NCBI GenBank assembly: GCA_051884915.1
Contig: JBJEWF010000087.1
Span: forward strand, 30,595 to 94,594
Direction: 5' to 3'
Length of the DNA: 64,000 nucleotides
Origin: Kiritimatiellia bacterium
GTDB taxonomy: Bacteria > Verrucomicrobiota > Kiritimatiellia > RFP12 > UBA1067
Part shown: in pieces, positions 15,183 through 62,441 of the stretch
How positions within the stretch are numbered: the stretch's first letter is position 1
Layout of the letters: every line of letters begins with the position of its first letter
Made by a program: the position numbers and the translations under genes
Notes under the pieces: model-generated
The model's input: the letters and a program-made list of their open reading frames with translations, nothing else
Databases searched by the model: none
Told to the model about the DNA's origin: nothing

Positions 15183-15878
15183 CTATCCCAGCGGCGCCGG
15201 CGGTTCCGTCAGGCGCCCGCGTTCCAGCGCCAGGATCCGATCGCATTTTGCCGCGGCCGCGCGCGAATGCGTGACCATGACACACGCAAGCGGCGACTCG
15301 TTCAGTTCAAACAGCAGCTTCAGGATTTCGGCGCCCGTCAGCGCGTCGAGATTGCCCGTCGGCTCGTCGGCGAACACGATTTCCGGACGGCAGATCAGCG
15401 CACGGGCCAGAGCCACGCGCTGCTGTTCGCCGCCCGACAGTTCCGTGGGGAGATGCGCCAGCCGGTCTCCGAGTCCGACCTTTTCGAGAAGTTCCCGCGC
15501 GCGCGTGCGCGCGGAAGGGACGCGGGCGTATCCCGTCATTGTCGGCAGCAGAACGTTCTCCACGACATCCAATTCCGGCATCAGATGGAAACTCTGGAAG
15601 ACGAATCCGATTTTCGTCGCCCGCAGGCGATTGCTCCGCCACGCGGCCCCGAAACCGCGGAACAGCGACGTGCCGTCAAGCCGGACGTCGCCCGCCGTCG
15701 GCCGGTCCAGGCCGCCGAGGATGTTCAGCAGCGTCGTCTTTCCCGCGCCGCTCCGTCCGACAACGGCCACATGCTCGCCCCGGTCGACCGCGAACGCCAC
15801 CCCGTCGAGAACCCGAATCGGCTTCTGGCCGGGGAGCCGGTATTCCTTGACGACATCCTGGACGGTCAGCAAACTCAT
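15183..15878 (-). CDS. lolD: ABC transporter ATP-binding protein, LolD/MacB-type
   Basis: Walker A GRSGAGKTT, signature LSGGEQQR and Walker B IVFADEPT. Its start overlaps the stop of the upstream permease (15875-15878). Confidence 0.8.
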   Translation of the reverse strand: MSLLTVQDVVKEYRLPGQKPIRVLDGVAFAVDRGEHVAVVGRSGAGKTTLLNILGGLDRPTAGDVRLDGTSLFRGFGAAWRSNRLRATKIGFVFQSFHLMPELDVVENVLLPTMTGYARVPSARTRARELLEKVGLGDRLAHLPTELSGGEQQRVALARALICRPEIVFADEPTGNLDALTGAEILKLLFELNESPLACVMVTHSRAAAAKCDRILALERGRLTEPPAPLG

Positions 15879-17101
15879 TTGTTCAACGCCTCAACGGGAT
15901 TCTTGGACGCCGCGAGGAATGCCGGAACCAGCGCCGCCAGCAGACCAAACACGTAGACGACAACGACAACCCAGACGACGTCCGCCGTCACCAGGCGGTA
16001 CGGAAGCGAATCCAGTCCATACACCGCCTTCGGGAACACCTCCACGCCGAAGCGCGCCAGCTGTTCAACCAGATTCTGCAGATTCTTCAGCACCGCAAAC
16101 GCCGTCGCCAGCCCCAGCCCGGTTCCCGCCGTCACCTGGGCAAGGCCATGCACGACAAATGCCCCCATGATCTTCCGCTTCGGAAACCCCAGGGCCTTCA
16201 TCAGCCCGATTTGCGGCGTCTTCTGGACCGTCAGCACGAGCAGCGTATTCATCACGCAGAAAAGCGCGACGACCGTAATCAGCATCAGCAGAAGCGCCGT
16301 CATGTTCTTCTCCACGGCCAGGGCGTTGAACAGCTCGCGGTCCGCCTGCCGCCACGTCACCTGCCGGCAGTCCGGCGCAATCTGCCCGATCTTCTCGCAG
16401 ACCGCATTGAACGCGGGCACATTCGACGGTTCGGCCGTCTTGAGATGAATGGCGAAGACGCCTTTCTCCATCCCCATCAGGTCGCGGACGTTCGCGAGCG
16501 ACGCCACCGCAAACCCGCTGTCGTAATCGCGCTGTCCGGAGGAGAAGACGCCCGTCACCTTCCATTTGACCGGCAGATAGATTTCATCCCGACCCACCAG
16601 GGTCTTCGGCGAATAGACGGTGACCACGTCCCCGATCCAGGCTCCCAGCTGCCGCGCCAGATCCACGCCGAGGACGATGGAGTCGCCTTCGAGGTCGTAT
16701 TCGCCGGCACGCGGACGGCCGATGCTGTAGGCTTTGAGGAACCGGTCGGGATCGACGCCGAGAATCATCGGCGCGGAGATTCTGCCGCGGTGCTCCAGCA
16801 TGACCCGGGCGTCGATCTCCGGCGTCACGGCCGTGACGCCGGGAATCGCCTCAAGCCGCCGGGTCAGTTCGTCTTCGCCGCGGATGACATGGACGCCGCC
16901 ATACGGCGTCAGCGTGACGTGCGGCTTGAAATCGAGAATCTTCTTCTCCCACAGGTCGCCGAAACCCGTCATGACCGCGCGAACGATGATGACGGCGGCG
17001 ACCCCCAGCAAGACGCCCAAAACCGAAACGCAGGTGATCACGCTGGTGACGCTGCGTTTCGGCTTCAGGTATTTCAGCGCTAGAAACAGACTGAACGGCA
17101 T
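15875..17101 (-). CDS. LolC/LolE-family (FtsX/MacB-type) ABC permease
   Basis: MPFSLFLALKYLKPKRS... matches the typical LolC/E N-terminus. The protein has a large periplasmic loop and a C-terminal FtsX-like 3-TM bundle. I moved the start to ATG 17101, one base from the stop of the upstream gene; the track start is 17170. Confidence 0.8.
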   Translation of the reverse strand: MPFSLFLALKYLKPKRSVTSVITCVSVLGVLLGVAAVIIVRAVMTGFGDLWEKKILDFKPHVTLTPYGGVHVIRGEDELTRRLEAIPGVTAVTPEIDARVMLEHRGRISAPMILGVDPDRFLKAYSIGRPRAGEYDLEGDSIVLGVDLARQLGAWIGDVVTVYSPKTLVGRDEIYLPVKWKVTGVFSSGQRDYDSGFAVASLANVRDLMGMEKGVFAIHLKTAEPSNVPAFNAVCEKIGQIAPDCRQVTWRQADRELFNALAVEKNMTALLLMLITVVALFCVMNTLLVLTVQKTPQIGLMKALGFPKRKIMGAFVVHGLAQVTAGTGLGLATAFAVLKNLQNLVEQLARFGVEVFPKAVYGLDSLPYRLVTADVVWVVVVVYVFGLLAALVPAFLAASKNPVEALNK

Positions 17102-17102
17102 C

Positions 17103-18839
17103 TCAAATATCGATGGAGACGCCGACCTCGCCGCCCTTGTCCTTCGACAGCGCCTCGACGTCGGCTTCAACTTCCGTGGCCTTCAGGGTGGAAGTCGGCA
17201 GATAGCGGTAGTACACCATCAGCTGCAATGCGGCAAGACAGGTGCCCATCACATCGTAGTTGTAATGGTCGCCGTTCACCCAGTGTCCCATCTGGCGCGG
17301 CTTCCCCGAAGCGTCCTCGATGGTCAGCGGCTCCTTGGTCTTCGCATCGACGCACGTGATGATCGACTTCGGATAGAGCGCCTTCATCTCGGTGTTCCAC
17401 TTCTTCCAGAGCGTCTGGTTGGCCGGCGTGGCGTTCTTGCACATGCCGGCCTGGTATTTGCACTGGGCGGCGTAGTAGGAATAGTACTGCGAGTTCGGCC
17501 CGCCCGACATGTGCTTCTTGTCGAACGTCGGCGACCAGCCCTTCATGACGTCCAGCGCGTTGACGACTTCAGGGTCCTTGGCGTAGCCGAGGAGCTGCAT
17601 TGCAAGGCAGCCGACGCCGCCCAGACCGCCGCCGCTGCTTCCGGGACGGTAGACAAAGCCGGCCTTCTTGTTGTAGTTGCGCGTCTTGAGGCACTTGACG
17701 GCCTTCTTGATGCACTCCTCCTGCCCCGGCAGATGGATGCCCGCCATCTTGCCGGCCTTCAGCGCCTGCATGGCCCAGCCGCCGAACGAGATGTCGTCCG
17801 GCGCTTCCGTCGTCACGCGCTTCATGTTGTAGTTCCAGCCGCCGGTGGCCGTCTGGCCCGCGATGATGCGTCCCAGCGTCTTTTCGGCCGCCTCGCGCGC
17901 GTTCGGATTCCTGGTCATGCCGAACGCCTCGCACAGCGCGTAGGTGCCGATCAGGAAGCCGTACTCGGTCCCCGAGGCGCCGCGCATCTTCACCGACGGC
18001 GTGTTGCCGTTGTTGTCCTTCTTCAGCGAGCCGTCCTTGTTCTTCTCGATGTAGACGCTCTTGACCAGATAGTCGAGGGCTTTCTGCACCGTCGGGCCGA
18101 ATTCCTTCGAGCCGGGCGTTTCGCCGTGGGCGAGGAACGTCAGCACGGCGAAGCCGCAGCCCGCCGCCTTGTCCATGCCCTTCGTCAACCCGAACGCCGG
18201 CTTCGTGCCCCAGGAGCCGTCGGCATCCTGCGTGGCCTTCAACCAGCGCAGCGCCTTCATGACGGCGGCCTCCGTCAGCGCGTCGCCGTACTGGGCGCCG
18301 CCGCGCGTCTGCGTGCCGCGGACGCCCGCGCCGCGCTCCGTGCCCAGCACGGACTTGATCGTCACCGGGCTCTTGATGTTGAGCATCGCGTCGACGGACG
18401 CCACCTTCACCGACTGCGGTTCGGCCGTCGGCGCCGGCTGCTGCGCCACTTCCGTCGGATTCACCGTGGGCGTGTCCACGGCGATTTCAACGTCGATGTC
18501 CGGCGGCGGCTCCGTCTCCGGCGGCGGTTCGACCTCCTCAAGCTGCTCCTCCTGCTGGTCGGCCTGCACGATCTCGACCTTGATCTCCTGCCGGGTCCTG
18601 CTGCCCACCGCCGTCACGACGAACAGCACGATGACGCCGATCAATGGAATGAGAATGGCCATCAGGGGCGCGATCTGGCGCTGCAGCTCGATGATGGCCT
18701 CCTTGTATTCGCGCGAGGCGCGCGAACGGCCAAGGCCGGTGAACATCTTCAGAAGCCGCTTGAAATAGCCTTCCTCGTCGTATTTGGCCATTTCCTCCTC
18801 AAGGCGTTCCTTCATGACTTCTTCGTCAATCGTCTCCAT
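17103..18839 (-). CDS. TonB/TolA-like membrane anchor and Glu/Pro-rich spacer fused to a prenyltransferase/squalene-cyclase-like (QW-motif) alpha/alpha toroid domain
   Basis: 578 aa. An acidic cytoplasmic head, one TM helix (IAPLMAILIPLIGVIVLFVVTAVG) and a spacer (QQEEQLEEVEPPPETEPPPDIDVE...QQPAPTAEPQ). The C-terminal part carries two QxxxGxW motifs (ATQDADGSW, AGQTATGGW). It sits directly downstream of exbB-exbD-exbD. Confidence 0.7.
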   Translation of the reverse strand: METIDEEVMKERLEEEMAKYDEEGYFKRLLKMFTGLGRSRASREYKEAIIELQRQIAPLMAILIPLIGVIVLFVVTAVGSRTRQEIKVEIVQADQQEEQLEEVEPPPETEPPPDIDVEIAVDTPTVNPTEVAQQPAPTAEPQSVKVASVDAMLNIKSPVTIKSVLGTERGAGVRGTQTRGGAQYGDALTEAAVMKALRWLKATQDADGSWGTKPAFGLTKGMDKAAGCGFAVLTFLAHGETPGSKEFGPTVQKALDYLVKSVYIEKNKDGSLKKDNNGNTPSVKMRGASGTEYGFLIGTYALCEAFGMTRNPNAREAAEKTLGRIIAGQTATGGWNYNMKRVTTEAPDDISFGGWAMQALKAGKMAGIHLPGQEECIKKAVKCLKTRNYNKKAGFVYRPGSSGGGLGGVGCLAMQLLGYAKDPEVVNALDVMKGWSPTFDKKHMSGGPNSQYYSYYAAQCKYQAGMCKNATPANQTLWKKWNTEMKALYPKSIITCVDAKTKEPLTIEDASGKPRQMGHWVNGDHYNYDVMGTCLAALQLMVYYRYLPTSTLKATEVEADVEALSKDKGGEVGVSIDI

Positions 18840-19731: not shown

Positions 19732-20550
19732 TCAGGCCTGGGCTTCCGATTCGACTTCGACGTTGCGGAGATCCTTGATGAGCTCCATCGTCAGCGCCGT
19801 CATGCGAAGGATGAGGCGGTTCGCGTTGTTGCGGATGGAGTAGAAGATCGTCAGCGCCGGGATCGAGACCACCAGACCGGCGGCCGTCGTCCACAGCGCC
19901 TGGGAGATGTTGCCGGCCAGCGCGCCGATGTCCGGCACGCCCGAAGCGAGAGTGGCGAAGCACATGATCATGCCTTGCACCGTACCCAGCAGACCGAGCG
20001 AAGGCGCGAGGTTGGAGCACACCGAAATCCACGTCAGACGCTGCATGATGCGCTCCGTCTCAAGATCGGCCGCCGCGTTGACGGATTCCTGAATGACGTC
20101 GAAGCCCTCCTCCACGTGCTGGAACGCGGCCGCCAGGATGTTGGACATCGCGCTCGGCTCGCTCTCGCACGCCTTCAGCGCCTTCATCACGTCGCCCTCG
20201 GCCATCGCGCCCTGGACGCTGTTGATGAGGGACTGCGGCATCAGCTTCTGGGGCTTGATCAGCACCCAGCAGTCCACCGCGAAGTAGATCGCCGCGGCGC
20301 CGTCGGCGAAAAGGGCGAACCACAGGATCACGCCCAGCGCGCCCGAACCGAACACGATGTCGAGAAAGCCGTTGCCGCCGCCCCTCTTCTCGCCGGCGTC
20401 GACCGGTTTGCCGCTGGTCGTGTCGACGAGGTCGCTCGCGGGCGCAGAAGAATCCTGGGCCATCGCGACATTCGTCGCAACGGGGGCGACAACCAGGCCG
20501 AGCATCATCAGGACGGCCATTACGGACTTCTGCGTTTTCTTCATGTTCAT
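19732..20550 (-). CDS. exbB: MotA/TolQ/ExbB proton-channel protein with a signal peptide and a periplasmic N-terminal extension
   Basis: The C-terminal half (LGLLGTVQGMIMCF...ALWTTAAGLVVSIPALTIFY) is the ExbB/TolQ signature. I moved the start to ATG 20550 (MNMKKTQKSVMAVLMMLGLVVAPVATNVAMAQ), which is preceded by AAGGAAC. Confidence 0.88.
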   Translation of the reverse strand: MNMKKTQKSVMAVLMMLGLVVAPVATNVAMAQDSSAPASDLVDTTSGKPVDAGEKRGGGNGFLDIVFGSGALGVILWFALFADGAAAIYFAVDCWVLIKPQKLMPQSLINSVQGAMAEGDVMKALKACESEPSAMSNILAAAFQHVEEGFDVIQESVNAAADLETERIMQRLTWISVCSNLAPSLGLLGTVQGMIMCFATLASGVPDIGALAGNISQALWTTAAGLVVSIPALTIFYSIRNNANRLILRMTALTMELIKDLRNVEVESEAQA

Positions 20551-20611
20551 TTTCTTTTGTTCCTTGCTTAGACTGTATTGTCGGATACCTGATTCAAACT
20601 CGCGCATCACC

Positions 20612-21418: not shown

Positions 21419-24400
21419 TTAATCCGCCTTGACCGAATTGAGCGCGTTCTGCACATCCGTCTTGCGCTTGCCGTCCGGAAAGAGCTCAAGATAGGTATTC
21501 GCGTACCTGACGATCGTCTCGCGCTGCTCCGCCTTGGCCTCCTTCTCCTCTTTCGAGCCGTCCGCCATCTTCGGCAGAATCTTCGCCATCAGCGGCAGCG
21601 CCGCGGCGTAGCACCGTTCCAGATTGGCGAGTTCGGCCGGCGTCATGTCCTTCGCCGGGTGCGCCTCCGTCGGCTCGTGCGACATCAGGAAGGCCTGGAA
21701 GCCGGACACCGCCAGGCGCGCGGTCTCCTCCGCCTTCGCCGCCAGGCCCATCGCCTCCTCGGCCTCCATCTTCCGCACCAGGATCTCCGCCGAGCGCAGT
21801 TCGAGAATGTCCAGATCGGCTTTCGTCTTCTTGAAGGCGCGGACCTTCTTGAGCGCGCCCACGGCCGCGTTGAAATACTTGCGGCGCATGTCGTCGTCCT
21901 TCTCGCGGCGGCCTTCCTCGGCGGCGATTTCGACGATCATCTCGTAGGCGTCGACCACCAGGCGGCTCTTGCCGTATTTCTCCGTGAAATCGTCCAGCTT
22001 CTGGTGGGCTTCGCTCCAGGACTCCGCCCCCTTGAGCGCCTTGGCCTGGCCAACCAGCGCCATCTGGACGATGGCGGTCGCGTTCGACGCGCCCTTCGAC
22101 AGGTCAATGGCCTTCGCGTAGGCCTCCTGCGCGACGTCCCATCCCTTCGCGTCCAGCAGGGCGTTGCCCGCCATCAGGAACTGGCCGGCCGTGTACTTCC
22201 CGTCCGGCGTCGAGAGCATCTGCCGGTACTGCGCGACGCCTTCGGCGCGCAGCCCCATCTCGATGAGCGTCTTCGCCAGGCGCGGCACCGAGTTCTTGGC
22301 CTCGTCCGAATCGGGGAATTCCTTCTGCAGGCGGGCGAACGCCTCCTGCGACTTCTCCATGTTCTTCTCCGCCGTCCAGATCGTTCCGATCTTCACGAGA
22401 ATCTGCGGCGCGTACCGGCCCTTCGGGTTGGTCGCGAGATAGTTCTCGTAGGCCTTGACGGCCATGCCGCGGAACGCCGGAATCTTGTCCGCCGGCCATT
22501 GCAGGCGCTGCCAGCTTTCACCTTCGAGATACTGGGCCTGTTCGCGCTGGAGGACGTACGTGTCCCGTTCGGCGGCCGGCAGGCCCTTGTCCTCCAGCGC
22601 CTTCCCGATCAGGGCCGTCGTCGCGCGGAAATCCTTGATCGCGCCCGCCACGCCGCCATAGCCCTGCTTGCGGAGGCTCTCCGCCGCCGCCACGTCATTC
22701 GTCCCGGCTGCCGCGTCGAACGACGCGAAGCCGCGCTTCTGCTCCATCAGCGCCAGACTCAGCTGCGAGGAGATCTTCTCGCTGGGCTTCTTCGCGACGT
22801 TCGCGAACTTGCGCAGCCAGCTTTCCTGCTCGTGCGAATTGCCGAGTTTGCCATGGCAGGTCGAGAGGCATTGCAGCGAGCTCGCGTAGTACGGCGAGTT
22901 CGTGTAGGCGGTCGCCACCATTTCGTAGAAGTGGATCGCCTTCTCCCAGTCCTCGGCCTTCATCGCCTGCCCCGCCAGGGAGAGCGCCGTCTGCGACGCG
23001 TTGTAATGGCTGCCGAAGTTCTTGAAATAGAGGTCGTAGACTTCCTGCGAACGCGCCAGCGCGCCCGTTTCGCGCTCCTTGATCGCCAGACGGAGCAGTT
23101 CGTCGCCGGCGGCGCGCTCCCGCGCGTCGCCCTTGCCGGCGAACTGCTTGACGAGCTCCTCTTCCGCCGCCGTCGCCGCCGCGCGGAACTCCTGCTTCTT
23201 CTTGGCGTCCCTTTCGTTCTGCCCCAGGGCCAGGTTGCAGTCCGCCAGGATGGCGATCGCCCCCGGCGCCTCCTCCGCGTCCGGGAACTGCTTCAGGAGC
23301 GCCGTGTAGGCCTTGAGCGCCCCCGCGAAGTCGCTGCCCTTGAATATCGAATAGGCGTTGTTGAACTGCGCCTGACGGACCTTCGCCATCTGGTCCGGCG
23401 AAATGTTCACGGCCTTCTTCAGGTCCTTTTTGTAGCGTTCCTGGACGAAAGCCGCAATCTCCTCGTAGATCTGCCCCGCATCCGCCGCGACCGACGATTC
23501 CGGGTATTTCACGTAGACGTTGACGGCGTGGTTGAAGGCGCCCAGACCGTTGCGCTTGCCGTTCACCTTCGCCCCGAGGATGGCGGCGGTGATCTTCGCG
23601 TCGTCGGGCTTCGCCGCCTTCGCTTCGGCCTTGGCCACGTCCCACAGCATCTTCGCCAGCAGATAGCGGCACTCGGGCATCGGGCTCATGCGCACATAGC
23701 CCAGCTTGCCGTCGGGATCCTGCTCCAGCAGGCTGTTGTGGATCTCCGCCAGCTGCGGCATGTAGCCGTTCACCAGGCTCTGCGCCTTCTCGACGTTGCC
23801 GGTCAGCATCTCGATGTGCGCCTTCATCGCGATGGCCTTGCCGAACACGATGATGAGGTCGTTCTTCCACAACAGCTTGTCCACCAGCGCCGTCGCCTGG
23901 GCGAGGTAGCTCTTCCGCTTCTCCAGCAGGGCCTTGTCCTTGCCGCCCTCGACCTTGATGTCCTCGGCCAGATTGATGAACAGCCCCGCCGCCTCCATCG
24001 CCACCGCGCACCAGCGCTCTTCCGGCAGATTCTTGGACAGCAGCCCGCCGTACATCTTCACGGCCTCGTCGAAATTCCTCTCGGCCACGCAGATCTGCGC
24101 CCACGTGAAACCGGCCTGGACGTAGAAGTCGACCAGTTCCGGACCCGGCTTCTGGACTTTCGCGAAGAACTCCTGGTAGATCTTGCGGCACTCGGCCATC
24201 ATCGAACGCGCGTAGTAGGCGTCGGCCATGGACAATTTCAGCGCCCAGTACTCGCTGCCGTTCTTGTCCTGCATGCCGTCGATGACCTTCTGCACGTCCG
24301 CAAACTTGCCCAGCCGGAGATCGCCCTGGATTTCCAGGACTTTCAGCTTCGGCCCGAGCTGGGGCCACTTCTTCTTGGCCGCGGCGATCACGATTTCGGC

Positions 24401-24580
24401 GAAGTCGGGCATGTTCGCCTCGATCAGCGCCGCGATGTAGGCTTCCTCCTCCTTCATCGCCGCGGCGTCGGCGTCGGCCGGCTCGGCGTCGGCCGCGCGC
24501 GCGTGCGCGAACGGAACGAGGACACTCGCGGCCAGCGCCGCGAATGCGAGAGCACGACTATAGGTATGGCTAAATCTCAT
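21419..24580 (-). CDS. Large secreted tetratricopeptide (TPR) repeat protein
   Basis: About 1053 aa from ATG 24580 (MRFSHTYSRALAFAALAASVLVPFAHARAAD, signal peptide). It shows many 34-aa-type A/Y/L-rich repeats (e.g. AYYARSMMAECRKIYQEF, AQYLEGESWQRL). The track start 24688 would run through the pgk terminator. Confidence 0.75.
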   Translation of the reverse strand: MRFSHTYSRALAFAALAASVLVPFAHARAADAEPADADAAAMKEEEAYIAALIEANMPDFAEIVIAAAKKKWPQLGPKLKVLEIQGDLRLGKFADVQKVIDGMQDKNGSEYWALKLSMADAYYARSMMAECRKIYQEFFAKVQKPGPELVDFYVQAGFTWAQICVAERNFDEAVKMYGGLLSKNLPEERWCAVAMEAAGLFINLAEDIKVEGGKDKALLEKRKSYLAQATALVDKLLWKNDLIIVFGKAIAMKAHIEMLTGNVEKAQSLVNGYMPQLAEIHNSLLEQDPDGKLGYVRMSPMPECRYLLAKMLWDVAKAEAKAAKPDDAKITAAILGAKVNGKRNGLGAFNHAVNVYVKYPESSVAADAGQIYEEIAAFVQERYKKDLKKAVNISPDQMAKVRQAQFNNAYSIFKGSDFAGALKAYTALLKQFPDAEEAPGAIAILADCNLALGQNERDAKKKQEFRAAATAAEEELVKQFAGKGDARERAAGDELLRLAIKERETGALARSQEVYDLYFKNFGSHYNASQTALSLAGQAMKAEDWEKAIHFYEMVATAYTNSPYYASSLQCLSTCHGKLGNSHEQESWLRKFANVAKKPSEKISSQLSLALMEQKRGFASFDAAAGTNDVAAAESLRKQGYGGVAGAIKDFRATTALIGKALEDKGLPAAERDTYVLQREQAQYLEGESWQRLQWPADKIPAFRGMAVKAYENYLATNPKGRYAPQILVKIGTIWTAEKNMEKSQEAFARLQKEFPDSDEAKNSVPRLAKTLIEMGLRAEGVAQYRQMLSTPDGKYTAGQFLMAGNALLDAKGWDVAQEAYAKAIDLSKGASNATAIVQMALVGQAKALKGAESWSEAHQKLDDFTEKYGKSRLVVDAYEMIVEIAAEEGRREKDDDMRRKYFNAAVGALKKVRAFKKTKADLDILELRSAEILVRKMEAEEAMGLAAKAEETARLAVSGFQAFLMSHEPTEAHPAKDMTPAELANLERCYAAALPLMAKILPKMADGSKEEKEAKAEQRETIVRYANTYLELFPDGKRKTDVQNALNSVKAD

Positions 24581-24587
24581 GGCGGCA

Positions 24588-24616
24588 AGTATAATGGAAA
24601 AACCGGCATGCGTCAA
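24588..24616 (-). promoter_or_regulatory. Sigma70-type promoter TTGACG-17-TATACT, 7 nt upstream of the TPR gene ATG (candidate leaderless)
   Basis: Minus strand reads gtgcTTGACGcatgccggtttttccatTATACTtgccgccATG. The -35 hexamer lies in the loop of the pgk terminator hairpin. Confidence 0.7.
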
Positions 24617-24628
24617 GCACGCCGGTTT
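24596..24628 (-). terminator. Rho-independent terminator after pgk
   Basis: Minus-strand RNA reads AAACCGGC-(13-nt loop)-GCCGGUUU followed by UUCC. The stem is 8 bp and the U-run is 5. Confidence 0.65.
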
Positions 24629-24674
24629 CGAAAAAGTTGCCTTTTCCAGGCGACTTCGCCATCTGTTCCCGCGG

Positions 24675-25988
24675 TTACTTGTCCTCAAGCGCCGCGACGC
24701 CCGGCAGGACCTTGCCTTCGAGATATTCGAGCGACGCGCCGCCGCCCGTCGAAATGTGGGACATTTCGGCCGCCTTGCCGCTCTTCTTCACCGCGCTGAC
24801 GGAATCGCCGCCGCCGATGATGGACATGCCGCCGTTCGCCTTGACCGTGGCGACCGCGTCGCACACGCCAAACGTGCCCTTCGCGAGCGGCGGGAACTCG
24901 AAACAGCCCATCGGGCCGTTCCACACGACCGTCTTCGCCGCCTTGACCGCGTCGGAGAAGAGCGCGATCGACTTCGGGCCGATGTCAAGCCCCATCCAGC
25001 CGTCTTCGATGTCGCCCTCCGAGACCTTCATCTCGATGTCGGACGCGTCCTTCTCGGCCGGGAACTTGTTCGCGACCACGTCGTCGACGGGGAGCAGGAA
25101 CTTGATGCCCTTGGCCGCCGCCGCGTCCAGCATCTCCTTCGCGTACGCGAGCTGGTCGTCCTCGCACAGGGACGCGCCGATCTTCACGCCCTGGGCCTTC
25201 TTGAACGTGTAGGCCATGCCGCCGCCCACGATGAGCGTGTCGACCTTGTTGAGGAGGTTCTTGATGACCTTGAGCTTGTCGGAAACCTTCGCGCCGCCGA
25301 GAATGGCCACGAACGGACGGACCGGATTCTCGACCGCATCGCCGAGGAACTTGATTTCCTTCTCAAGCAGGAAGCCGCTCACCGCCGGACGCAGATAGTC
25401 CGCGATCACGGCCGTCGAAGCATGGGCGCGGTGCGCCGTGCCGAACGCGTCGTTCGCATAGACGTCGCCGTAGGACGCGAGCTTCTTCGCCATCGCGATG
25501 CGCTGCTCCTTGAGTTCCGCCTTCTTCGCCTGGAACTCCTCTTCCGTCAGATGGATGCCCTTCTTCTCGTCGTCCTTCTTGACCTTGCCGTCCTCGGCCT
25601 TGTAGAAGCGGGTGTTCTCAAGCAGCGTGACGTCGCCCGGCTTCATCGCCGCGACAATCCCGTCCGCCGCCATGCAGTCCGGCGCGAACGTGACGGGCCG
25701 GTCGAGAAGCTTCGCCAGCGCCTCCGCCACCGGCTTCAGCGTGAACGCGGCATTGTCCGCATTCGGCGCCGCGCCCAGCTTGACGCCCTTCGGGCGGCCG
25801 AGGTGGGACATCAGAACGAGCGAAGCCCCCTGCTCAAGCACGTACTTGATGGACGGAAGCGCCGCGACGATGCGCGTGTCGTCCGTGATCTTGCCGGAGC
25901 CGTCCTTGGCCATCGGCACGTTGAAATCGACGCGCATCACCACGCGCTTGCCCGCGAGATCGATGTCGCGAAGAGTCTTCTTAGCCAT
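24675..25988 (-). CDS. pgk: Phosphoglycerate kinase (long form)
   Basis: [25 protein letters not shown]...SHLGRPKG...[13 protein letters not shown]...GGGDS...STGGGASLE. The 437-aa length includes a charged segment before NDAFG. Confidence 0.96.
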
Positions 25989-58263: not shown

Positions 58264-59202
58264 TTAAAAGTACCATTTCAGGGGGTCTCGGAAGCGATCC
58301 AGGAAGATTTTCTGTTCCCTTGCCACCAGGACGCGGGCGGACAATTCCTGGCACGCCCCTGCCAGTTCGCCGGGATCCAAGGCAAGCGCCGCCGTCGACA
58401 GGGCGTCTGCCACGGCCGCCGACGTCGGGCAGTACGCCCACGTCTGCGCCCACCGGCCGGCGGCGGCGCGTTTCCGGACGTCCACGACATGCTGTCCCCG
58501 GATCTCGAAACCGCTTCCGGAAAGAGCCGCGCCATCCGTCAGGCGAACGACCGTCTCCAGTCGTGTCCGTTTCTTCCAGACGCCACCCACTCCCAGCGGC
58601 CAGCCCCGGCCCGTGCCGTCCATGTCGCCCCACGCCAGCAGCGTCGACGTGCCCGCGTCCAGGAGACACGAGCCGATTTCAAACTGCTCCGACTTCAGAA
58701 TGCGGGCCGCCTCGTCCAGGGCAAAGCCCTTGCCGATTCCGCCAAAATCAAGTTCGAGCGGCGTCGCGCGGCCCAGGGCATCCGCCGTGACCGAAACCCG
58801 GCGATGTTCCACGTCCAGAACAAGCCGCTGCATCCCGCCCCGCGCAAACGCCTCGTCGCGCGCCTCCCGGGGCAGCGCGTCCCAGGTTGCGCCCGCCGCG
58901 CGCAGTCTGTCCATGATCGGGCCGACGGTCGGGTCGAACGCGCCCCCCGTTGCCGCGCAGACGCGCGTGGCCGTCACCAGAAGGTCCATCGTCTCGGCCG
59001 CGACGGTCGCGATCCGCCCCGGGGACAGTCCCCGGACGACCGCCACGTCGCTCGTGTCGTTGAACCGGCTCAACAGCAGTTCCAGGGCGTCGATCCGGTC
59101 GAAAACGGCCGCCGCCGCCGCACCGCAGAGAGAGGGGTCCTCAGTCAAACCAAAGGACACCGAAAACTCGGTGTCCATGGCCTTGTGGCTGAATTTCTCC
59201 AC
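58264..59202 (-). CDS. apbE: FAD:protein FMN transferase (ApbE family) without a recognisable signal peptide
   Basis: 312 aa. AMDTEFSV (compare the AMGT motif), FDPTVGP, DFGGIGKGFALD and SGSG are ApbE-type motifs. The N-terminus MEKFSHK has no hydrophobic leader or lipobox. Confidence 0.8.
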   Translation of the reverse strand: MEKFSHKAMDTEFSVSFGLTEDPSLCGAAAAAVFDRIDALELLLSRFNDTSDVAVVRGLSPGRIATVAAETMDLLVTATRVCAATGGAFDPTVGPIMDRLRAAGATWDALPREARDEAFARGGMQRLVLDVEHRRVSVTADALGRATPLELDFGGIGKGFALDEAARILKSEQFEIGSCLLDAGTSTLLAWGDMDGTGRGWPLGVGGVWKKRTRLETVVRLTDGAALSGSGFEIRGQHVVDVRKRAAAGRWAQTWAYCPTSAAVADALSTAALALDPGELAGACQELSARVLVAREQKIFLDRFRDPLKWYF

Positions 59203-59205
59203 GCG

Positions 59206-61359
59206 CTATTTCTTTCTGCAGCACATCCAGCAGATTGCGCAGCTGACCGCCGCGAAGCACAACGACGTGCACCGGTGGCTCCACAGGAGGATTTCCTGTC
59301 CGTGCGACCCGAAGACCGTCATCATCGGCATGACCGACGTGAACACGACGGCGGCCGCCAGGAACGTCCAGAAGGCCCACAGGACGGACATCCACAGCTT
59401 CTTCGTCCGGTCGGCCGTCCGGAAGAACAGCATCAGCAGCGCGCAGGCCGCGAAGACGCCGCCGGCGACCATGTGCAGAACCAGCCACCAGCCCGTCATT
59501 CCGCCCATGAACCAGCCGAGCGCGCCCGACAGGATCTGGTAGAGGAGACCCGCCACGAATCCAAGGTCGACCAGCCACTTGAAGAGCCCCCAGGCGAATT
59601 CGCCCGTCTCGTCGGCCACCCACTTGGCGAGTTTCTGAAACGCCCAGGCAACCGTCGCCGCCGCAAAGAGGCACATCAGGCCGAACGCGACCCAGAGGAA
59701 GACCTTGAACACGGGACGCAGCGCGAAGGTTGAACCCAGAACGGTGTGGTAGAACCTTCCGACGCCGAGGAATTCGGCTTGCGGAACGGATTCGACGGCG
59801 GCGTCGACAATCGGCCCCGCCGGCCGGATCGAGCCGAGGAAGAACTGCGAATCGTCCGAATGGCAGTCGGCGCAGACGGCCGGCGCCGCGCCCATGGCCT
59901 TGCGCGCGGGGCGGACGTCGTGCCCCAAGGCCCAGGACACGGGCTTGGCGGCGGCGTGCGCCGCGTGGACGAGGTTCGTGCCTTCGAGCCGCCACAGCTG
60001 GCCATGGCCGACGAACGCGTACGCCTTGTCCGCCGCCCGGGCGGCCAGTTCCCGCAGAGCCGACGCAAGGACGGCCCTGGTGAAGGCGTTTGTCGTGTCG
60101 AGGGCCTTGACGTCCTGGAGCGCGTCCGGGAGAATCGGCACCGGCGCACCATCCTTCAGTTCCGCGAAATAGCTCGGCCACACCATCCGCCGCGCCTCGA
60201 TGACGCCCTTCGCGTTCCGGACGAACACGGGTTCGAGGATGAAGGGATTGTCCGTGGCCCACTGCGCACGGCCGTAGATGCCGATGCGGTTCGCGCGCGA
60301 CGTCCGGACCAGACGGCGCTCGCCGCGTTCCGTCACCCCCGCATGGCAGACCGTGCAGGACAGCTTCTCGAAATGGACCAGCGGAATGCCCGCATGGGCG
60401 GGACGGGGACCGCTTCCCTTCGCGCCCACGTGGCAGCCGGCGCAGCTCTTCGTCTTCACGCGATGGTCCATGCCGTTCTGATGGCAGTCGATGCACGTCA
60501 GGCCCCGCTTGAGGTGGACGTCGCCGGCAATCTGATGGGACGGCATGCCTTTCTGCGAAACGCCATGGCAGGACAGGCAGTTCCCGCTCTGCGGCTTGCC
60601 CACCCTGAACAGGCAGCGGTTCTTCTGGTCGAACTGCGTCTTGTCGTAAACCGTGTTTTCGGGAACCCGGAAGAGGTGGTCGTCCGGATTCTCGTTCAGA
60701 AAGGCGGCATCCCAGGAGGATTCAAGGCGCTCGTTCATGCCCTCGACAAGACCGATGCCCGCCGCCGCCGTGGCGGCCCCCTGCCAGTTCTCGCGCAGAA
60801 CCTGGCGCGCCCACTCGCTCGAATCGTATCCGCCCTGCTGGTGGCAGGCAAGGCAGTTCACGCCCAAGGCGCCCGTCACAAACCAGCGCTGCCGCTCGCC
60901 CGCGACCTCCTCCATGGCACGCGGATCGCTGCCGATGCCGCCGCCCGGGAAGGCGCGGCCGAACATCTTCGTCCACTGCCAGCAGGAGATGCCGAGTTCG
61001 CGCGGCGATTTGGCGCCCTCCTGCCCGTGCAGGGAAAGCGGAATGGCCGTGGCCGTCCGGTCGTCCGCGAGAAACCAGGGCTCGCCCTGCACCGAAGCGG
61101 GCGCATCGTTGGTGTCAAGCCCCGTGCGGAAATGGGATCCGCCGCGGGACGAGGCGACGTCATGGCACTGAGCGCACGTTTTCTCCTGCGAGATGGGCGC
61201 CGGCAGACGCCCCCCCGGCGAGACCTTGTCGCCCGCGGCGTCCAGCGGAGCCAGCCGATGGAAGGGAACCGTCCGCCCGCCATTCCAGTGACCCGCGTCG
61301 GCCCCGGCCGAAAGACCGGCGACGAGAGCCGCGGCCAAGATCAAAAAGTTTCTCCTCAT
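59206..61359 (-). CDS. Heptaheme c-type cytochrome fused to a C-terminal five-TM membrane domain
   Basis: Seven CxxCH motifs: CAQCH, CLACH, CLSCH, CIDCH, CAGCH, CTVCH, CADCH. Signal peptide MRRNFLILAAALVAGLSAGA. The last ~173 aa (59209-59727) contain five hydrophobic helices. I prefer ATG 61359, which has GGAGG 6 nt upstream. The track ATG 61365 abuts the SD. Confidence 0.8.
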   Translation of the reverse strand: MRRNFLILAAALVAGLSAGADAGHWNGGRTVPFHRLAPLDAAGDKVSPGGRLPAPISQEKTCAQCHDVASSRGGSHFRTGLDTNDAPASVQGEPWFLADDRTATAIPLSLHGQEGAKSPRELGISCWQWTKMFGRAFPGGGIGSDPRAMEEVAGERQRWFVTGALGVNCLACHQQGGYDSSEWARQVLRENWQGAATAAAGIGLVEGMNERLESSWDAAFLNENPDDHLFRVPENTVYDKTQFDQKNRCLFRVGKPQSGNCLSCHGVSQKGMPSHQIAGDVHLKRGLTCIDCHQNGMDHRVKTKSCAGCHVGAKGSGPRPAHAGIPLVHFEKLSCTVCHAGVTERGERRLVRTSRANRIGIYGRAQWATDNPFILEPVFVRNAKGVIEARRMVWPSYFAELKDGAPVPILPDALQDVKALDTTNAFTRAVLASALRELAARAADKAYAFVGHGQLWRLEGTNLVHAAHAAAKPVSWALGHDVRPARKAMGAAPAVCADCHSDDSQFFLGSIRPAGPIVDAAVESVPQAEFLGVGRFYHTVLGSTFALRPVFKVFLWVAFGLMCLFAAATVAWAFQKLAKWVADETGEFAWGLFKWLVDLGFVAGLLYQILSGALGWFMGGMTGWWLVLHMVAGGVFAACALLMLFFRTADRTKKLWMSVLWAFWTFLAAAVVFTSVMPMMTVFGSHGQEILLWSHRCTSLCFAAVSCAICWMCCRKK

Positions 61360-61392
61360 GAACATCCTCCCCTCACTCCGGTCGCCGGCCTC

Positions 61393-61809
61393 TCACTTCC
61401 CCTCGTCCTTCGTCGCCAGGGAGAAGTTCCACACGTCTGCGGCACGGCACGCATCGATGAGCCCCATCAGCTTTTCATAGGCCGCCGTCTTGTCGGCGCG
61501 GATGACCACGGGCTGGCCCGGATAAAGCTGGGCAATCCGCTTCAGGCGCTCCGTGACGTCCTCCAGGGTCAGTTTCTGCCCGTTGATCGTGACGTCGCCC
61601 TGTTCGTTGAGATTCAGGATGATCTCGCCGGGCATGCGTCCGGGAACGGTCGCCGACTTCGCCGTCGGCAGGGCGATCGCCACTTCCGTTTCCCACTGGG
61701 AAAACACGCTCGACGTCACGAAGAAGCACAGCAGCAGGAAGATGACGTCCATCAAAGACGCCATCTGCACGGCCGGTGCATGGCTTTTGCGCGTACGGTT
61801 GAAGTTCAT
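61393..61809 (-). CDS. exbD: Biopolymer transport protein ExbD/TolR (third copy in the window)
   Basis: 138 aa. QMASLMDVIFLLLCFFV is the TM helix with its conserved Asp, followed by a periplasmic domain. Confidence 0.88.
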   Translation of the reverse strand: MNFNRTRKSHAPAVQMASLMDVIFLLLCFFVTSSVFSQWETEVAIALPTAKSATVPGRMPGEIILNLNEQGDVTINGQKLTLEDVTERLKRIAQLYPGQPVVIRADKTAAYEKLMGLIDACRAADVWNFSLATKDEGK

Positions 61810-62441
61810 GCAAATGCCTTTTCAAGCGCCACGGCCAGCGTTTCCAGACCCGCGACGCGCTTGGCCGTGCGACGACGGAGAAACGCGTGGAACGCCAGAC
61901 ACGGAATGGAGATGACAAGGCCGAACACCGTCGTGATGATCGCCTGGGAAACGCCCTGGGCCAGAACGACCGGACGCGCGTTGGCGGCCAAGTCGCTGGC
62001 GATGCCGCCAAAGGCCTGGAACATGCCGAGAACCGTTCCCAGCAGACCGACGAGCGGCGCGATGACCGCAAGATCCGCCAGCCAGTCGACCGACGCCTGC
62101 AGCCGTTCCGAGACGTGCGAACCCGCCGTCTCAATCGCCGATCTGACATCGGTCTTCGTGCCGGCCGGGGTGCCGCGCACGGCATCGAGCGCGGCGAGCG
62201 CAAGCCCGGCAAACGCGCACGGCCGCCGCTCGCAGAGACGGCGCGCTTCGCCCAGATCCCGCGCCTGAAGTTTGCTGAAAACGTCGCTCACCAGCGTGCG
62301 CGGGGCGAGAGCGCCGCGCCGCTGCGCCAGCAGCAGGTAGAGCACCACCGCGAGGGCGACCACGGAGAGTCCCGCCAGAACCCACATCAGGGGACCGCCA
62401 TAGGCCCATGCCTGGGCAACCGTAATTCCGCTTTCGTTCAT
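61806..62441 (-). CDS. exbB: MotA/TolQ/ExbB proton-channel protein (short form)
   Basis: 211 aa with 3 TM segments. APLVGLLGTVLGMFQAF...TTVFGLVISIPCLAFHAF is the signature. The start overlaps the argH stop (ATGA at 62438-62441). Confidence 0.88.
   Translation of the reverse strand: MNESGITVAQAWAYGGPLMWVLAGLSVVALAVVLYLLLAQRRGALAPRTLVSDVFSKLQARDLGEARRLCERRPCAFAGLALAALDAVRGTPAGTKTDVRSAIETAGSHVSERLQASVDWLADLAVIAPLVGLLGTVLGMFQAFGGIASDLAANARPVVLAQGVSQAIITTVFGLVISIPCLAFHAFLRRRTAKRVAGLETLAVALEKAFA

Follow-up and report, generated by a model that had tools for sequence, protein, structure and literature searches.

A gene on the reverse strand of a 64,000-nt stretch of a Kiritimatiellia bacterium genome (contig JBJEWF010000087.1, positions 30,595 to 94,594; hereafter the window) encodes a protein that joins a transmembrane (TM) helix and a flexible linker to a C-terminal toroid related to squalene-hopene cyclase (SHC), and it lies directly downstream of exbB-exbD-exbD. 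We call this protein and its family TOR. We consider it likely that TOR is a force transducer analogous to TonB and TolA, driven by the proton-motive force (PMF) and equipped with a toroid binding head. The head is probably a previously undescribed type for envelope-spanning machines. Coordinates of TOR, its parts and the genes around it are collected in Table 1.

The preliminary description of this DNA had proposed a 578-aa product with the topology of TonB or TolA, encoded where tonB would be expected, and the protein divides as it had outlined. The open reading frame (ORF) is real: it opens with ATG and has an AAGGAG Shine-Dalgarno sequence 6 nt 5′ of the start. An acidic cytoplasmic head (22% Glu) precedes the sole hydrophobic segment of the protein, IAPLMAILIPLIGVIVLFVVTAVG (Kyte-Doolittle maximum 2.95), and this single TM helix is followed by the Glu/Pro-rich spacer, of which aa 81-150 contain 17% Glu and 16% Pro with a net charge of −13. 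Across TOR relatives the Pro + Glu fraction of the linker ranges from 0.2 to 0.5. Some relatives carry a kinase or zf-HC2 domain N-terminal to the TM-linker-toroid arrangement. Because these cytoplasmic domains precede the TM helix, we assign TOR an N-in/C-out topology.

Residue conservation was counted in an alignment of 131 diverse TOR homologs (A3), which also served as input to AlphaFold2. For the cytoplasmic head, neither Pfam nor NCBIfam has a matching family; its conserved juxtamembrane motif has the consensus GL(K/R)xPxxSGEYKxAxLQxxRLxAP. Within the head and anchor, G35 is invariant and at least 90% of the sequences share L36, G43, K46, A48, R54, P58 and P65; the window TOR has Arg at position 43 and so departs from the conserved Gly. 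The TM helix follows the consensus AP-x2-A-x3-P, with P58 in 122/131 sequences, A61 in 116/131 and P65 in 129/131, a degree of conservation that appears unusual for a passive anchor. TonB, TolA and vWA transducers contact ExbB or TolQ through an SHLS/His motif (PMC12204202). As the anchor residues of the TOR head and TM helix are conserved, they may make a specific helix-helix contact that is unlike the SHLS/His contact of TonB and TolA.

The AlphaFold2 model of TOR has a mean pLDDT (predicted local distance difference test) of 80.4 and separates the protein into two ordered ends and a disordered middle. Residues 6-78 are predicted to form three helices, the last of which would cross the membrane, with mean pLDDT values in blocks of ten residues of 68 at aa 1-10 and 78-93 over aa 11-70. 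Nearly all of aa 87-183 falls below 50. From aa 187 to 545 the pLDDT is mostly above 90, and this region contains at least 12 helices. A Foldseek search of the PDB with the model returned 70 matches at E ≤ 1e-3, and the best 50 of the 70 are all (alpha/alpha)6 barrels or toroids. They include AGE-family sugar epimerases, GH76 and GH8 enzymes, squalene-hopene cyclases and farnesyltransferase beta; the AGE, GH76, SHC and farnesyltransferase beta matches reach a probability of 1.00. Sequence identities of 10-16% and target-normalised TM-scores of 0.47-0.65 place these similarities at the level of the fold only.

Profile searches narrow the relationship of this domain. The two exact QxxxGxW motifs that the preliminary description had pointed out are present (QDADGSW, aa 204-210, 18210-18230; QTATGGW, aa 329-335, 17835-17855), and the toroid ends in a conserved motif, L(E/M)VYYRYLPT. 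SQHop_cyclase_C (PF13243) passes its gathering score over aa 184-261 (27.3 vs 26.1 bits). Searched against the PDB, the single TOR sequence finds marginal SHC matches only (E 0.03-0.09), and the family profile is needed to reach squalene-hopene cyclase (1gsz) at E = 4.8e-13, with alpha-2-macroglobulin marginal. Among 52 diverse TOR members, SQHop_cyclase_C is found in 48, Prenyltrans (PF00432) in 23 and TED in 12 (weak, best E 2e-4); Prenyltrans does not match the window TOR itself. We conclude that the head is a single SHC-related toroid with profile-level homology to squalene-hopene cyclase repeats. The heads of known transducers were not found in its place: TonB_C (PF03544) has no match in TOR at E ≤ 0.1 or in the 52 members at E ≤ 0.01 and is absent from the PDB search with the family profile, the TolA C-terminal domain is found neither in TOR nor in the 52 members, and Pfam detects no vWA domain in TOR, whose modelled C-terminal domain is mainly helical. 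The preliminary description was thus right that the C-terminal ~390 residues are not TonB_C-like and form a toroid.

It had also left a choice between a binding and a catalytic head, and here the catalytic option fares poorly. No DxDD motif is present in TOR; one occurs anywhere in the toroid region of 23/131 relatives, with no conserved DxDD column, and the CGEQ thioester motif is found in 0/131 sequences. In the alignment columns H238 and D349 are conserved and C356 is nearly invariant, with Ala at this position in the window TOR; a conserved zinc triad thus appears to be lacking. The absence of DxDD and CGEQ and the replacement of C356 point to a binding module and not to a cyclase, a prenyltransferase or a thioester domain, and a catalytic role of the toroid appears unlikely. 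The alignment has 30 invariant columns, mostly in the toroid; many are aromatic, and E304, D349, Q358 and Q459 are among the others.

The TOR family runs to thousands of proteins from Kiritimatiellia and related lineages. An exhaustive search of 50%-identity representatives returned 6,091 proteins at E ≤ 1e-3 (308 at E ≤ 1e-30), and nearly all full-length matches share one plan, in which a TM helix near residue 60 and a Pro/Glu-rich linker precede QW motifs at about residues 200, 300 and 460. In a scan that took one genome from each species, at least 552 TOR relatives were found, and we analyzed the loci of the best 80, all from Kiritimatiellia, some of them filed under the older labels Lentisphaerae or Verrucomicrobia. 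Four full clusters lie on contigs labelled Azospirillum sp., Barnesiella intestinihominis, Anaerovoracaceae and Lachnospiraceae (L026, L036, L043 and L082), which are probably binning contamination or mislabelled metagenome-assembled genomes.

Gene order ties most of these copies to a motor. In the 80 copies with sufficient upstream sequence, the order TPR-TPR-ExbB-ExbD-ExbD-TOR is found in 65, another 3 are tandem or cluster-adjacent copies, and 12 are true orphans. The order is kept down to ~35% identity in loci without lol genes, and in another clade. A homolog of the large TPR protein stands in the same place in ~60 related loci as well as in distant ones, the 264-aa TPR-like gene is kept 5′ of exbB, and the two ExbD paralogs, ~30% identical to each other by tblastn cross-matches, form a heterologous pair that is likewise kept. 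No transporter gene is conserved in the cluster in related or distant loci. Linkage of homologs to exbB/exbD, on which the preliminary description had staked its proposal, thus holds for the main lineage and fails for the orphan paralogs, ~15% of the copies. Linked and orphan copies co-occur in three genomes.

Some copies outside the usual order are duplicates. Tandem TOR pairs follow exbD-exbD at L071:7983-11323 and L074:7272-10613, and at L050:7872-9539 an extra copy, with a large TPR gene on either side, closely precedes a full cluster. These three had been candidates for orphans and were rejected, two as tandem second copies and one as a copy beside a cluster. Three of the orphans (L042:9628-11774, L054:3433-5390 and L072:9710-11765) share neighbour genes of ~260-300 aa and ~400-418 aa, which have no Pfam match and lie downstream of TOR in L042 and L072 and upstream in L054.

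A short strand just outside the membrane offers a candidate contact with the motor. The D-box of TonB, which has the pattern PhiZPhiZPhiPhiZ and lies directly beyond the membrane, is the strand that the periplasmic ExbD dimer captures (PMC10907165). The TOR peptide IKVEIVQ (aa 85-91, within RQEIKVEIVQADQ) fits this pattern exactly and lies between the TM helix and EPPPETEPPP; Pro does not flank it on both sides. In the alignment, 78/131 members carry the strict pattern in the first 35 residues past the TM helix, as compared to 3.5 expected from shuffles. Many copies in the genome loci carry Ala as the sixth residue or the variant I-E-T-Q-V-L-E. When the pattern is relaxed to accept this Ala, it is found in 36/64 exbD-linked and 3/15 orphan copies (1.5 and 0.5 in shuffles; Fisher p = 0.02); here and below, p-values are indicative only, as the sequences are related and were compared with no phylogenetic correction. 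The contrast is suggestive, and would fit a functional divergence of linked from sigma-associated copies.

From these observations we infer docking at the motor, dependence on the PMF, a binding role for the toroid and the cellular process that TOR serves, as follows. TOR would be the force arm of an ExbB5-ExbD2-type motor within a six-gene module of two secreted TPR proteins, ExbB, two ExbDs and TOR itself. Its helical cytoplasmic head and Pro-containing TM helix would dock it at the motor, and the IKVEIVQ strand would be captured by a periplasmic ExbD heterodimer in the manner of the TonB D-box. The ~100-residue acidic Pro/Glu linker would then cross the periplasm, so that the distal toroid could bind a partner in the outer envelope and movement of the motor could pull on it. 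The likeliest partners would be the co-conserved TPR proteins or a component of the outer membrane, peptidoglycan or glycan.

Set beside TonB, TOR has the same N-in single TM helix, D-box-like strand, disordered Pro/Glu linker of ~100 aa and globular C-terminal head, and its gene takes the same place after exbB-exbD-exbD. It differs in its head, a ~360-aa (alpha/alpha)6 toroid in contrast to the ~90-aa TonB_C fold; in a TM helix without SHLS/His; in a long (~55 aa) and conserved cytoplasmic head; in a linker with an acidic Glu-Pro part and without a Lys-Pro part; and in the lack of a linked TonB-dependent transporter. Its resemblance to TolA and CpoB lies in the three-part layout of a transducer behind a TolQ/TolR-like motor and in the envelope-biogenesis neighbourhood of LolCDE, whereas TolA domain III is absent from TOR and the cluster contains neither tolB nor pal.

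The closest parallel in gene order comes from the vWA transducers. Williams-Jones et al. (2025, Mol Biol Evol) searched beside motor genes in species without TolA/TonB and reported TolA/TonB-like proteins whose TM helix is joined to a vWA head by a disordered linker that contains a motor box; Tichowtungia aerotolerans, a Kiritimatiellota species named there, is reported to have no discernible TolA or TonB (PMC12204202). TOR shares with these proteins the upstream TPR, tolQ-like and two heterologous tolR-like genes, the succession of TM helix, linker and globular head, and the same phylum-level lineage, so that the TOR cluster has the operon logic of the vWA transducers with a different head, an SHC-like toroid in place of the vWA fold, and without the SHLS motif. 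The text of PMC12204202 contains no mention of 'toroid' or 'squalene', and our literature search found nothing relevant joining ExbB, ExbD or TonB to squalene, prenyltransferase or toroid proteins. Compared to SHC and the class II terpene cyclases (PF13243, PF13249), with which it shares QW repeats and alpha/alpha toroid helices, TOR has a single ~360-aa barrel in place of two (~630 aa), lacks DxDD and is predicted to be periplasmic on a flexible tether. A last likeness is to single-pass anti-sigma factors and PASTA-type Ser/Thr kinases, whose sensor head faces outward and whose signalling head faces inward, in that TOR relatives bear such cytoplasmic heads and orphan copies adjoin extracytoplasmic function (ECF) sigma genes; the window TOR differs in having no zf-HC2 or kinase domain and in lying in a motor operon, not beside a sigma gene.

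The linker-plus-toroid module recurs, 40-50% identical and with the conserved stretch before the toroid included, on other heads: on Ser/Thr kinases (P0161, P0257), on a zf-HC2 anti-sigma head placed before a complete TOR N-terminus (P0182), on Sel1 repeats (P0185) and on an ExbD periplasmic domain (P0130/P0389/P0390). The toroid is thus a reusable periplasmic binding or sensing head. The conserved stretch is a linear motif at aa ~141-176 (18312-18419), SPxPAxFDxVAxVKSPVxMxGIxGSRxPGxRG, which is kept in the kinase and ExbD fusions although it is modelled at pLDDT <50. This motif could serve as a strand that binds a partner or as a plug of the toroid.

Several observations weigh against a motor-driven transducer. 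Neither Ser nor His is present in aa 56-79, so the TM helix lacks SxxxH and SHLS, as the preliminary description had noted. Coupling to the motor is argued from synteny and from a short, degenerate motif, and in the genome loci the strict D-box pattern is found in only 13/64 exbD-linked copies (0/15 orphans; p = 0.06). The toroid is also found as the outer domain of Ser/Thr kinases, and such proteins require no motor. The gene for the ExbD-toroid fusion stands alone, with no exbB nearby, and the fusion protein lacks a TM helix that bears Asp; its three 90%-identity clusters (Logan, ENA and JGI, one each) represent a narrow clade. For these reasons the fusion supports a functional association and not a direct insertion into a motor. 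Finally, ECF sigma or anti-sigma genes adjoin some of the orphan paralogs, an arrangement more indicative of signalling than of force transduction in at least part of the family. ECF sigma genes (Sigma70_r2 + r4_2) directly follow orphan TOR genes at L058:9618-10175 and L068:4691-5317, and in the locus L073:4921-5781 a zf-HC2 anti-sigma gene is found two genes downstream of an orphan paralog. These sigma-linked orphans suggest a signalling sub-branch and, together with the fusions, would allow a signalling role for part of the TOR family.

Much of this would also be expected if TOR were a membrane-anchored periplasmic sensor, akin to an anti-sigma factor or co-sensor, in which the toroid binds a ligand and the head relays the signal while ExbBD is merely co-transcribed or modulates the response as in FecA-FecR-FecI. 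The order of TOR, from a conserved helical head in the cytoplasm through a TM helix to a domain on the outside, is that of single-pass sensors, and the kinase and zf-HC2 fusions, the sigma-linked orphans and the lack of SHLS/His all suit such a role. We nevertheless regard it as unlikely for the window TOR, which has no sigma, anti-sigma or kinase gene among its neighbours and a head outside all Pfam and NCBIfam families. The strict placement behind two exbD genes, kept to ~35% identity, and the enrichment of the D-box-like strand in linked copies over orphans also argue against it.

Two further readings appear less probable still. An inner-membrane-tethered periplasmic enzyme, either terpenoid cyclase- or prenyltransferase-like and acting on a polyprenyl lipid or six-hairpin and glycan-active, would account for the SHC repeat homology, for the weak Prenyltrans, Pec_lyase and GH88 matches among family members, for the sugar epimerases and GH76/GH8 enzymes at the top of the Foldseek matches and for database names that point to a cyclase or prenyltransferase. 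Invariant E304, D349, Y293, Y337, Y452, Y455, Y456, W355, W478, W481 and W520 would suit a sugar or lipid pocket. Such an enzyme is nonetheless improbable: DxDD is missing, the toroid is single where cyclases have a double barrel, an Asp-Cys-His zinc set does not appear to be conserved, the structural matches stop at the fold, and the NCBIfam cyclase models score far below threshold (TIGR01787, 24.6 vs 322.7 bits; TIGR01507, 21.4 vs 431.1). The flexible tether of ~100 residues, the motor operon and the reuse of the module on kinases and anti-sigma heads fit a binding module better. Alternatively, TOR could replace TonB in nutrient import, its toroid engaging an outer-membrane transporter, either of the TonB-dependent type or specific to Kiritimatiellia, for the uptake of polysaccharides or micronutrients. 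The position of the gene and the TonB-like linker agree with this, several TOR paralogs per genome are possible, as with multiple TonBs, and Kiritimatiella glycovorans, according to one report, has no SusC-type genes for TonB-dependent uptake of polysaccharides (PMC5148204). We find import a doubtful explanation, however, as the cluster has no conserved transporter gene and its conserved partners, the TPR proteins and, in the clade of the window TOR, LolCDE, point toward envelope biogenesis. Pontiella, of the same phylum, has matches to ordinary TonB-dependent transporters and to TonB_C, so that TOR cannot be taken simply as the phylum's TonB.

For a force transducer of the TOR type, Tol-like envelope maintenance seems somewhat more likely than TonB-like nutrient import, and we lean toward it weakly. 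The leaning comes from the best NCBIfam scores, which are to TolQ/TolR for the motor subunits and to CpoB/YbgF for the large TPR protein, and from the translational coupling to lolCE-lolD in the clade of the window TOR. Against it, none of the TolQ, TolR and YbgF scores comes near its cut-off.

The genes around TOR form one co-directional block in which spacings are 12-25 nt (21-25 nt between TOR, the two ExbD genes and ExbB), and no strong internal terminator was found in a promoter and terminator scan. The more likely start of the large TPR gene is an ATG near 24580 (MRFSHTY...), with a segment resembling a signal peptide after it; in NCBIfam the protein matches tol_pal_ybgF (5.2e-15, below cut-off) and BamD. 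The 264-aa TPR-like protein has an N-terminus, MYRSVVWVFAVCAAASA, that resembles a signal peptide. ExbB carries an N-terminal signal-like extension and matches TolQ best (3.5e-18, below cut-off). At the downstream end, TOR and lolCE meet in the junction GAT ATT TGA G ATG, and the same 1-nt spacing is present in a relative with 82% identity; this junction implies translational coupling of TOR with lolCE. An apparent 68-nt overlap between TOR and a 431-aa LolC/E ORF starting from TTG at 17170 was rejected as an artefact of choosing the first start, the ATG at 17101 being the likely one. Linkage of lol genes to TOR extends to many clades, not to all.

Table 1. Features of TOR and its gene cluster in the window, with the evidence for each.
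Feature	Position	Strand	Evidence and remarks
TOR, toroid-headed TonB/TolA-like protein, 578 aa	17103..18839	−	ORF, Pfam, hydropathy, AlphaFold2, Foldseek
TOR cytoplasmic head, aa 1-55	18675..18839	−	Two helices and juxtamembrane motif
TOR TM helix, aa 56-79	18603..18674	−	Hydropathy; conserved P58, A61, P65
TOR D-box-like (motor-box-like) strand IKVEIVQ, aa 85-91	18567..18587	−	Between TM helix and Pro-rich stretch
TOR disordered Glu/Pro-rich periplasmic linker, aa 80-185	18285..18602	−	pLDDT, composition
TOR single (alpha/alpha)6 toroid, aa 186-546	17202..18284	−	AlphaFold2, Foldseek, SHC profile match
Large TPR protein, 1089 aa from TTG	21419..24688	−	Pfam TPR_6, YfiO; first cluster gene
Secreted TPR-like protein, 264 aa	20612..21406	−	Weak TPR_6, TPR_19, YbgF; second cluster gene
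ExbB/TolQ-type motor subunit, 292 aa, GTG start	19732..20610	−	Pfam MotA_ExbB 5.9e-25
ExbD/TolR paralog 1, 141 aa	19281..19706	−	Pfam ExbD 7e-23; TM MIDVVFQL with Asp
ExbD/TolR paralog 2, 132 aa	18861..19259	−	Pfam ExbD 3.1e-20; TM also MIDVVFQL
LolC/E-like permease (MacB_PCD + FtsX)	15875..17101	−	Pfam; ATG 1 nt past TOR stop
LolD-like ABC ATPase	15183..15878	−	Pfam ABC_tran 3.6e-35; last co-directional gene

A sigma-70-like promoter match, TTGACG-17-TATACT (10/12), lies at 24588-24616 on the reverse strand, in a scan that overall returned barely more than expected from shuffles. As it falls in the ~95-nt gap between the pgk stop and the large TPR ATG, it is a possible promoter of the cluster. 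None of the six cluster proteins matched a PADLOC defence model (e.g. Zorya ZorAB). The window also contains a second motor pair on the reverse strand, MotA_ExbB at 61806-62441 (211 aa) and ExbD at 61393-61809 (138 aa), followed by a 719-aa secreted protein resembling multihaem cytochrome c3/c7 (59206-61365) and an ApbE flavin transferase (58264-59202), with no TonB-like gene evident alongside.

Kiritimatiellia are abundant anaerobic polysaccharide degraders of guts and sediments. To our knowledge, the only known periplasmic arms of ExbBD/TolQR proton motors are TonB, TolA and, since 2025, the vWA-headed proteins. An enzyme-derived toroid head in a large conserved family would, if the transducer reading is true, widen the range of partners that such motors pull on. 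The NCBI protein identical to TOR is named 'prenyltransferase/squalene oxidase repeat-containing protein' and the family also goes by 'terpene cyclase/mutase family protein'; names of this kind, including 'prenyltransferase repeat protein', probably misdescribe thousands of sequences. More tentatively, and with rather more doubt than assent, we propose that the toroid head defines a third structural class of transducer for 5:2 motors, next to TonB_C/TolA-III heads and vWA heads, that the six-gene module is the Kiritimatiellia equivalent of Tol/Ton, and that the sigma-linked paralogs form a trans-envelope signalling branch that is motor-independent or motor-gated. That kinases, anti-sigma heads and an ExbD domain all bear the module is a natural experiment that may lead to the ligand of the toroid, and TOR, if it acts as a transducer, would be a concrete candidate to supply the missing Tol/Ton function of Kiritimatiellia.

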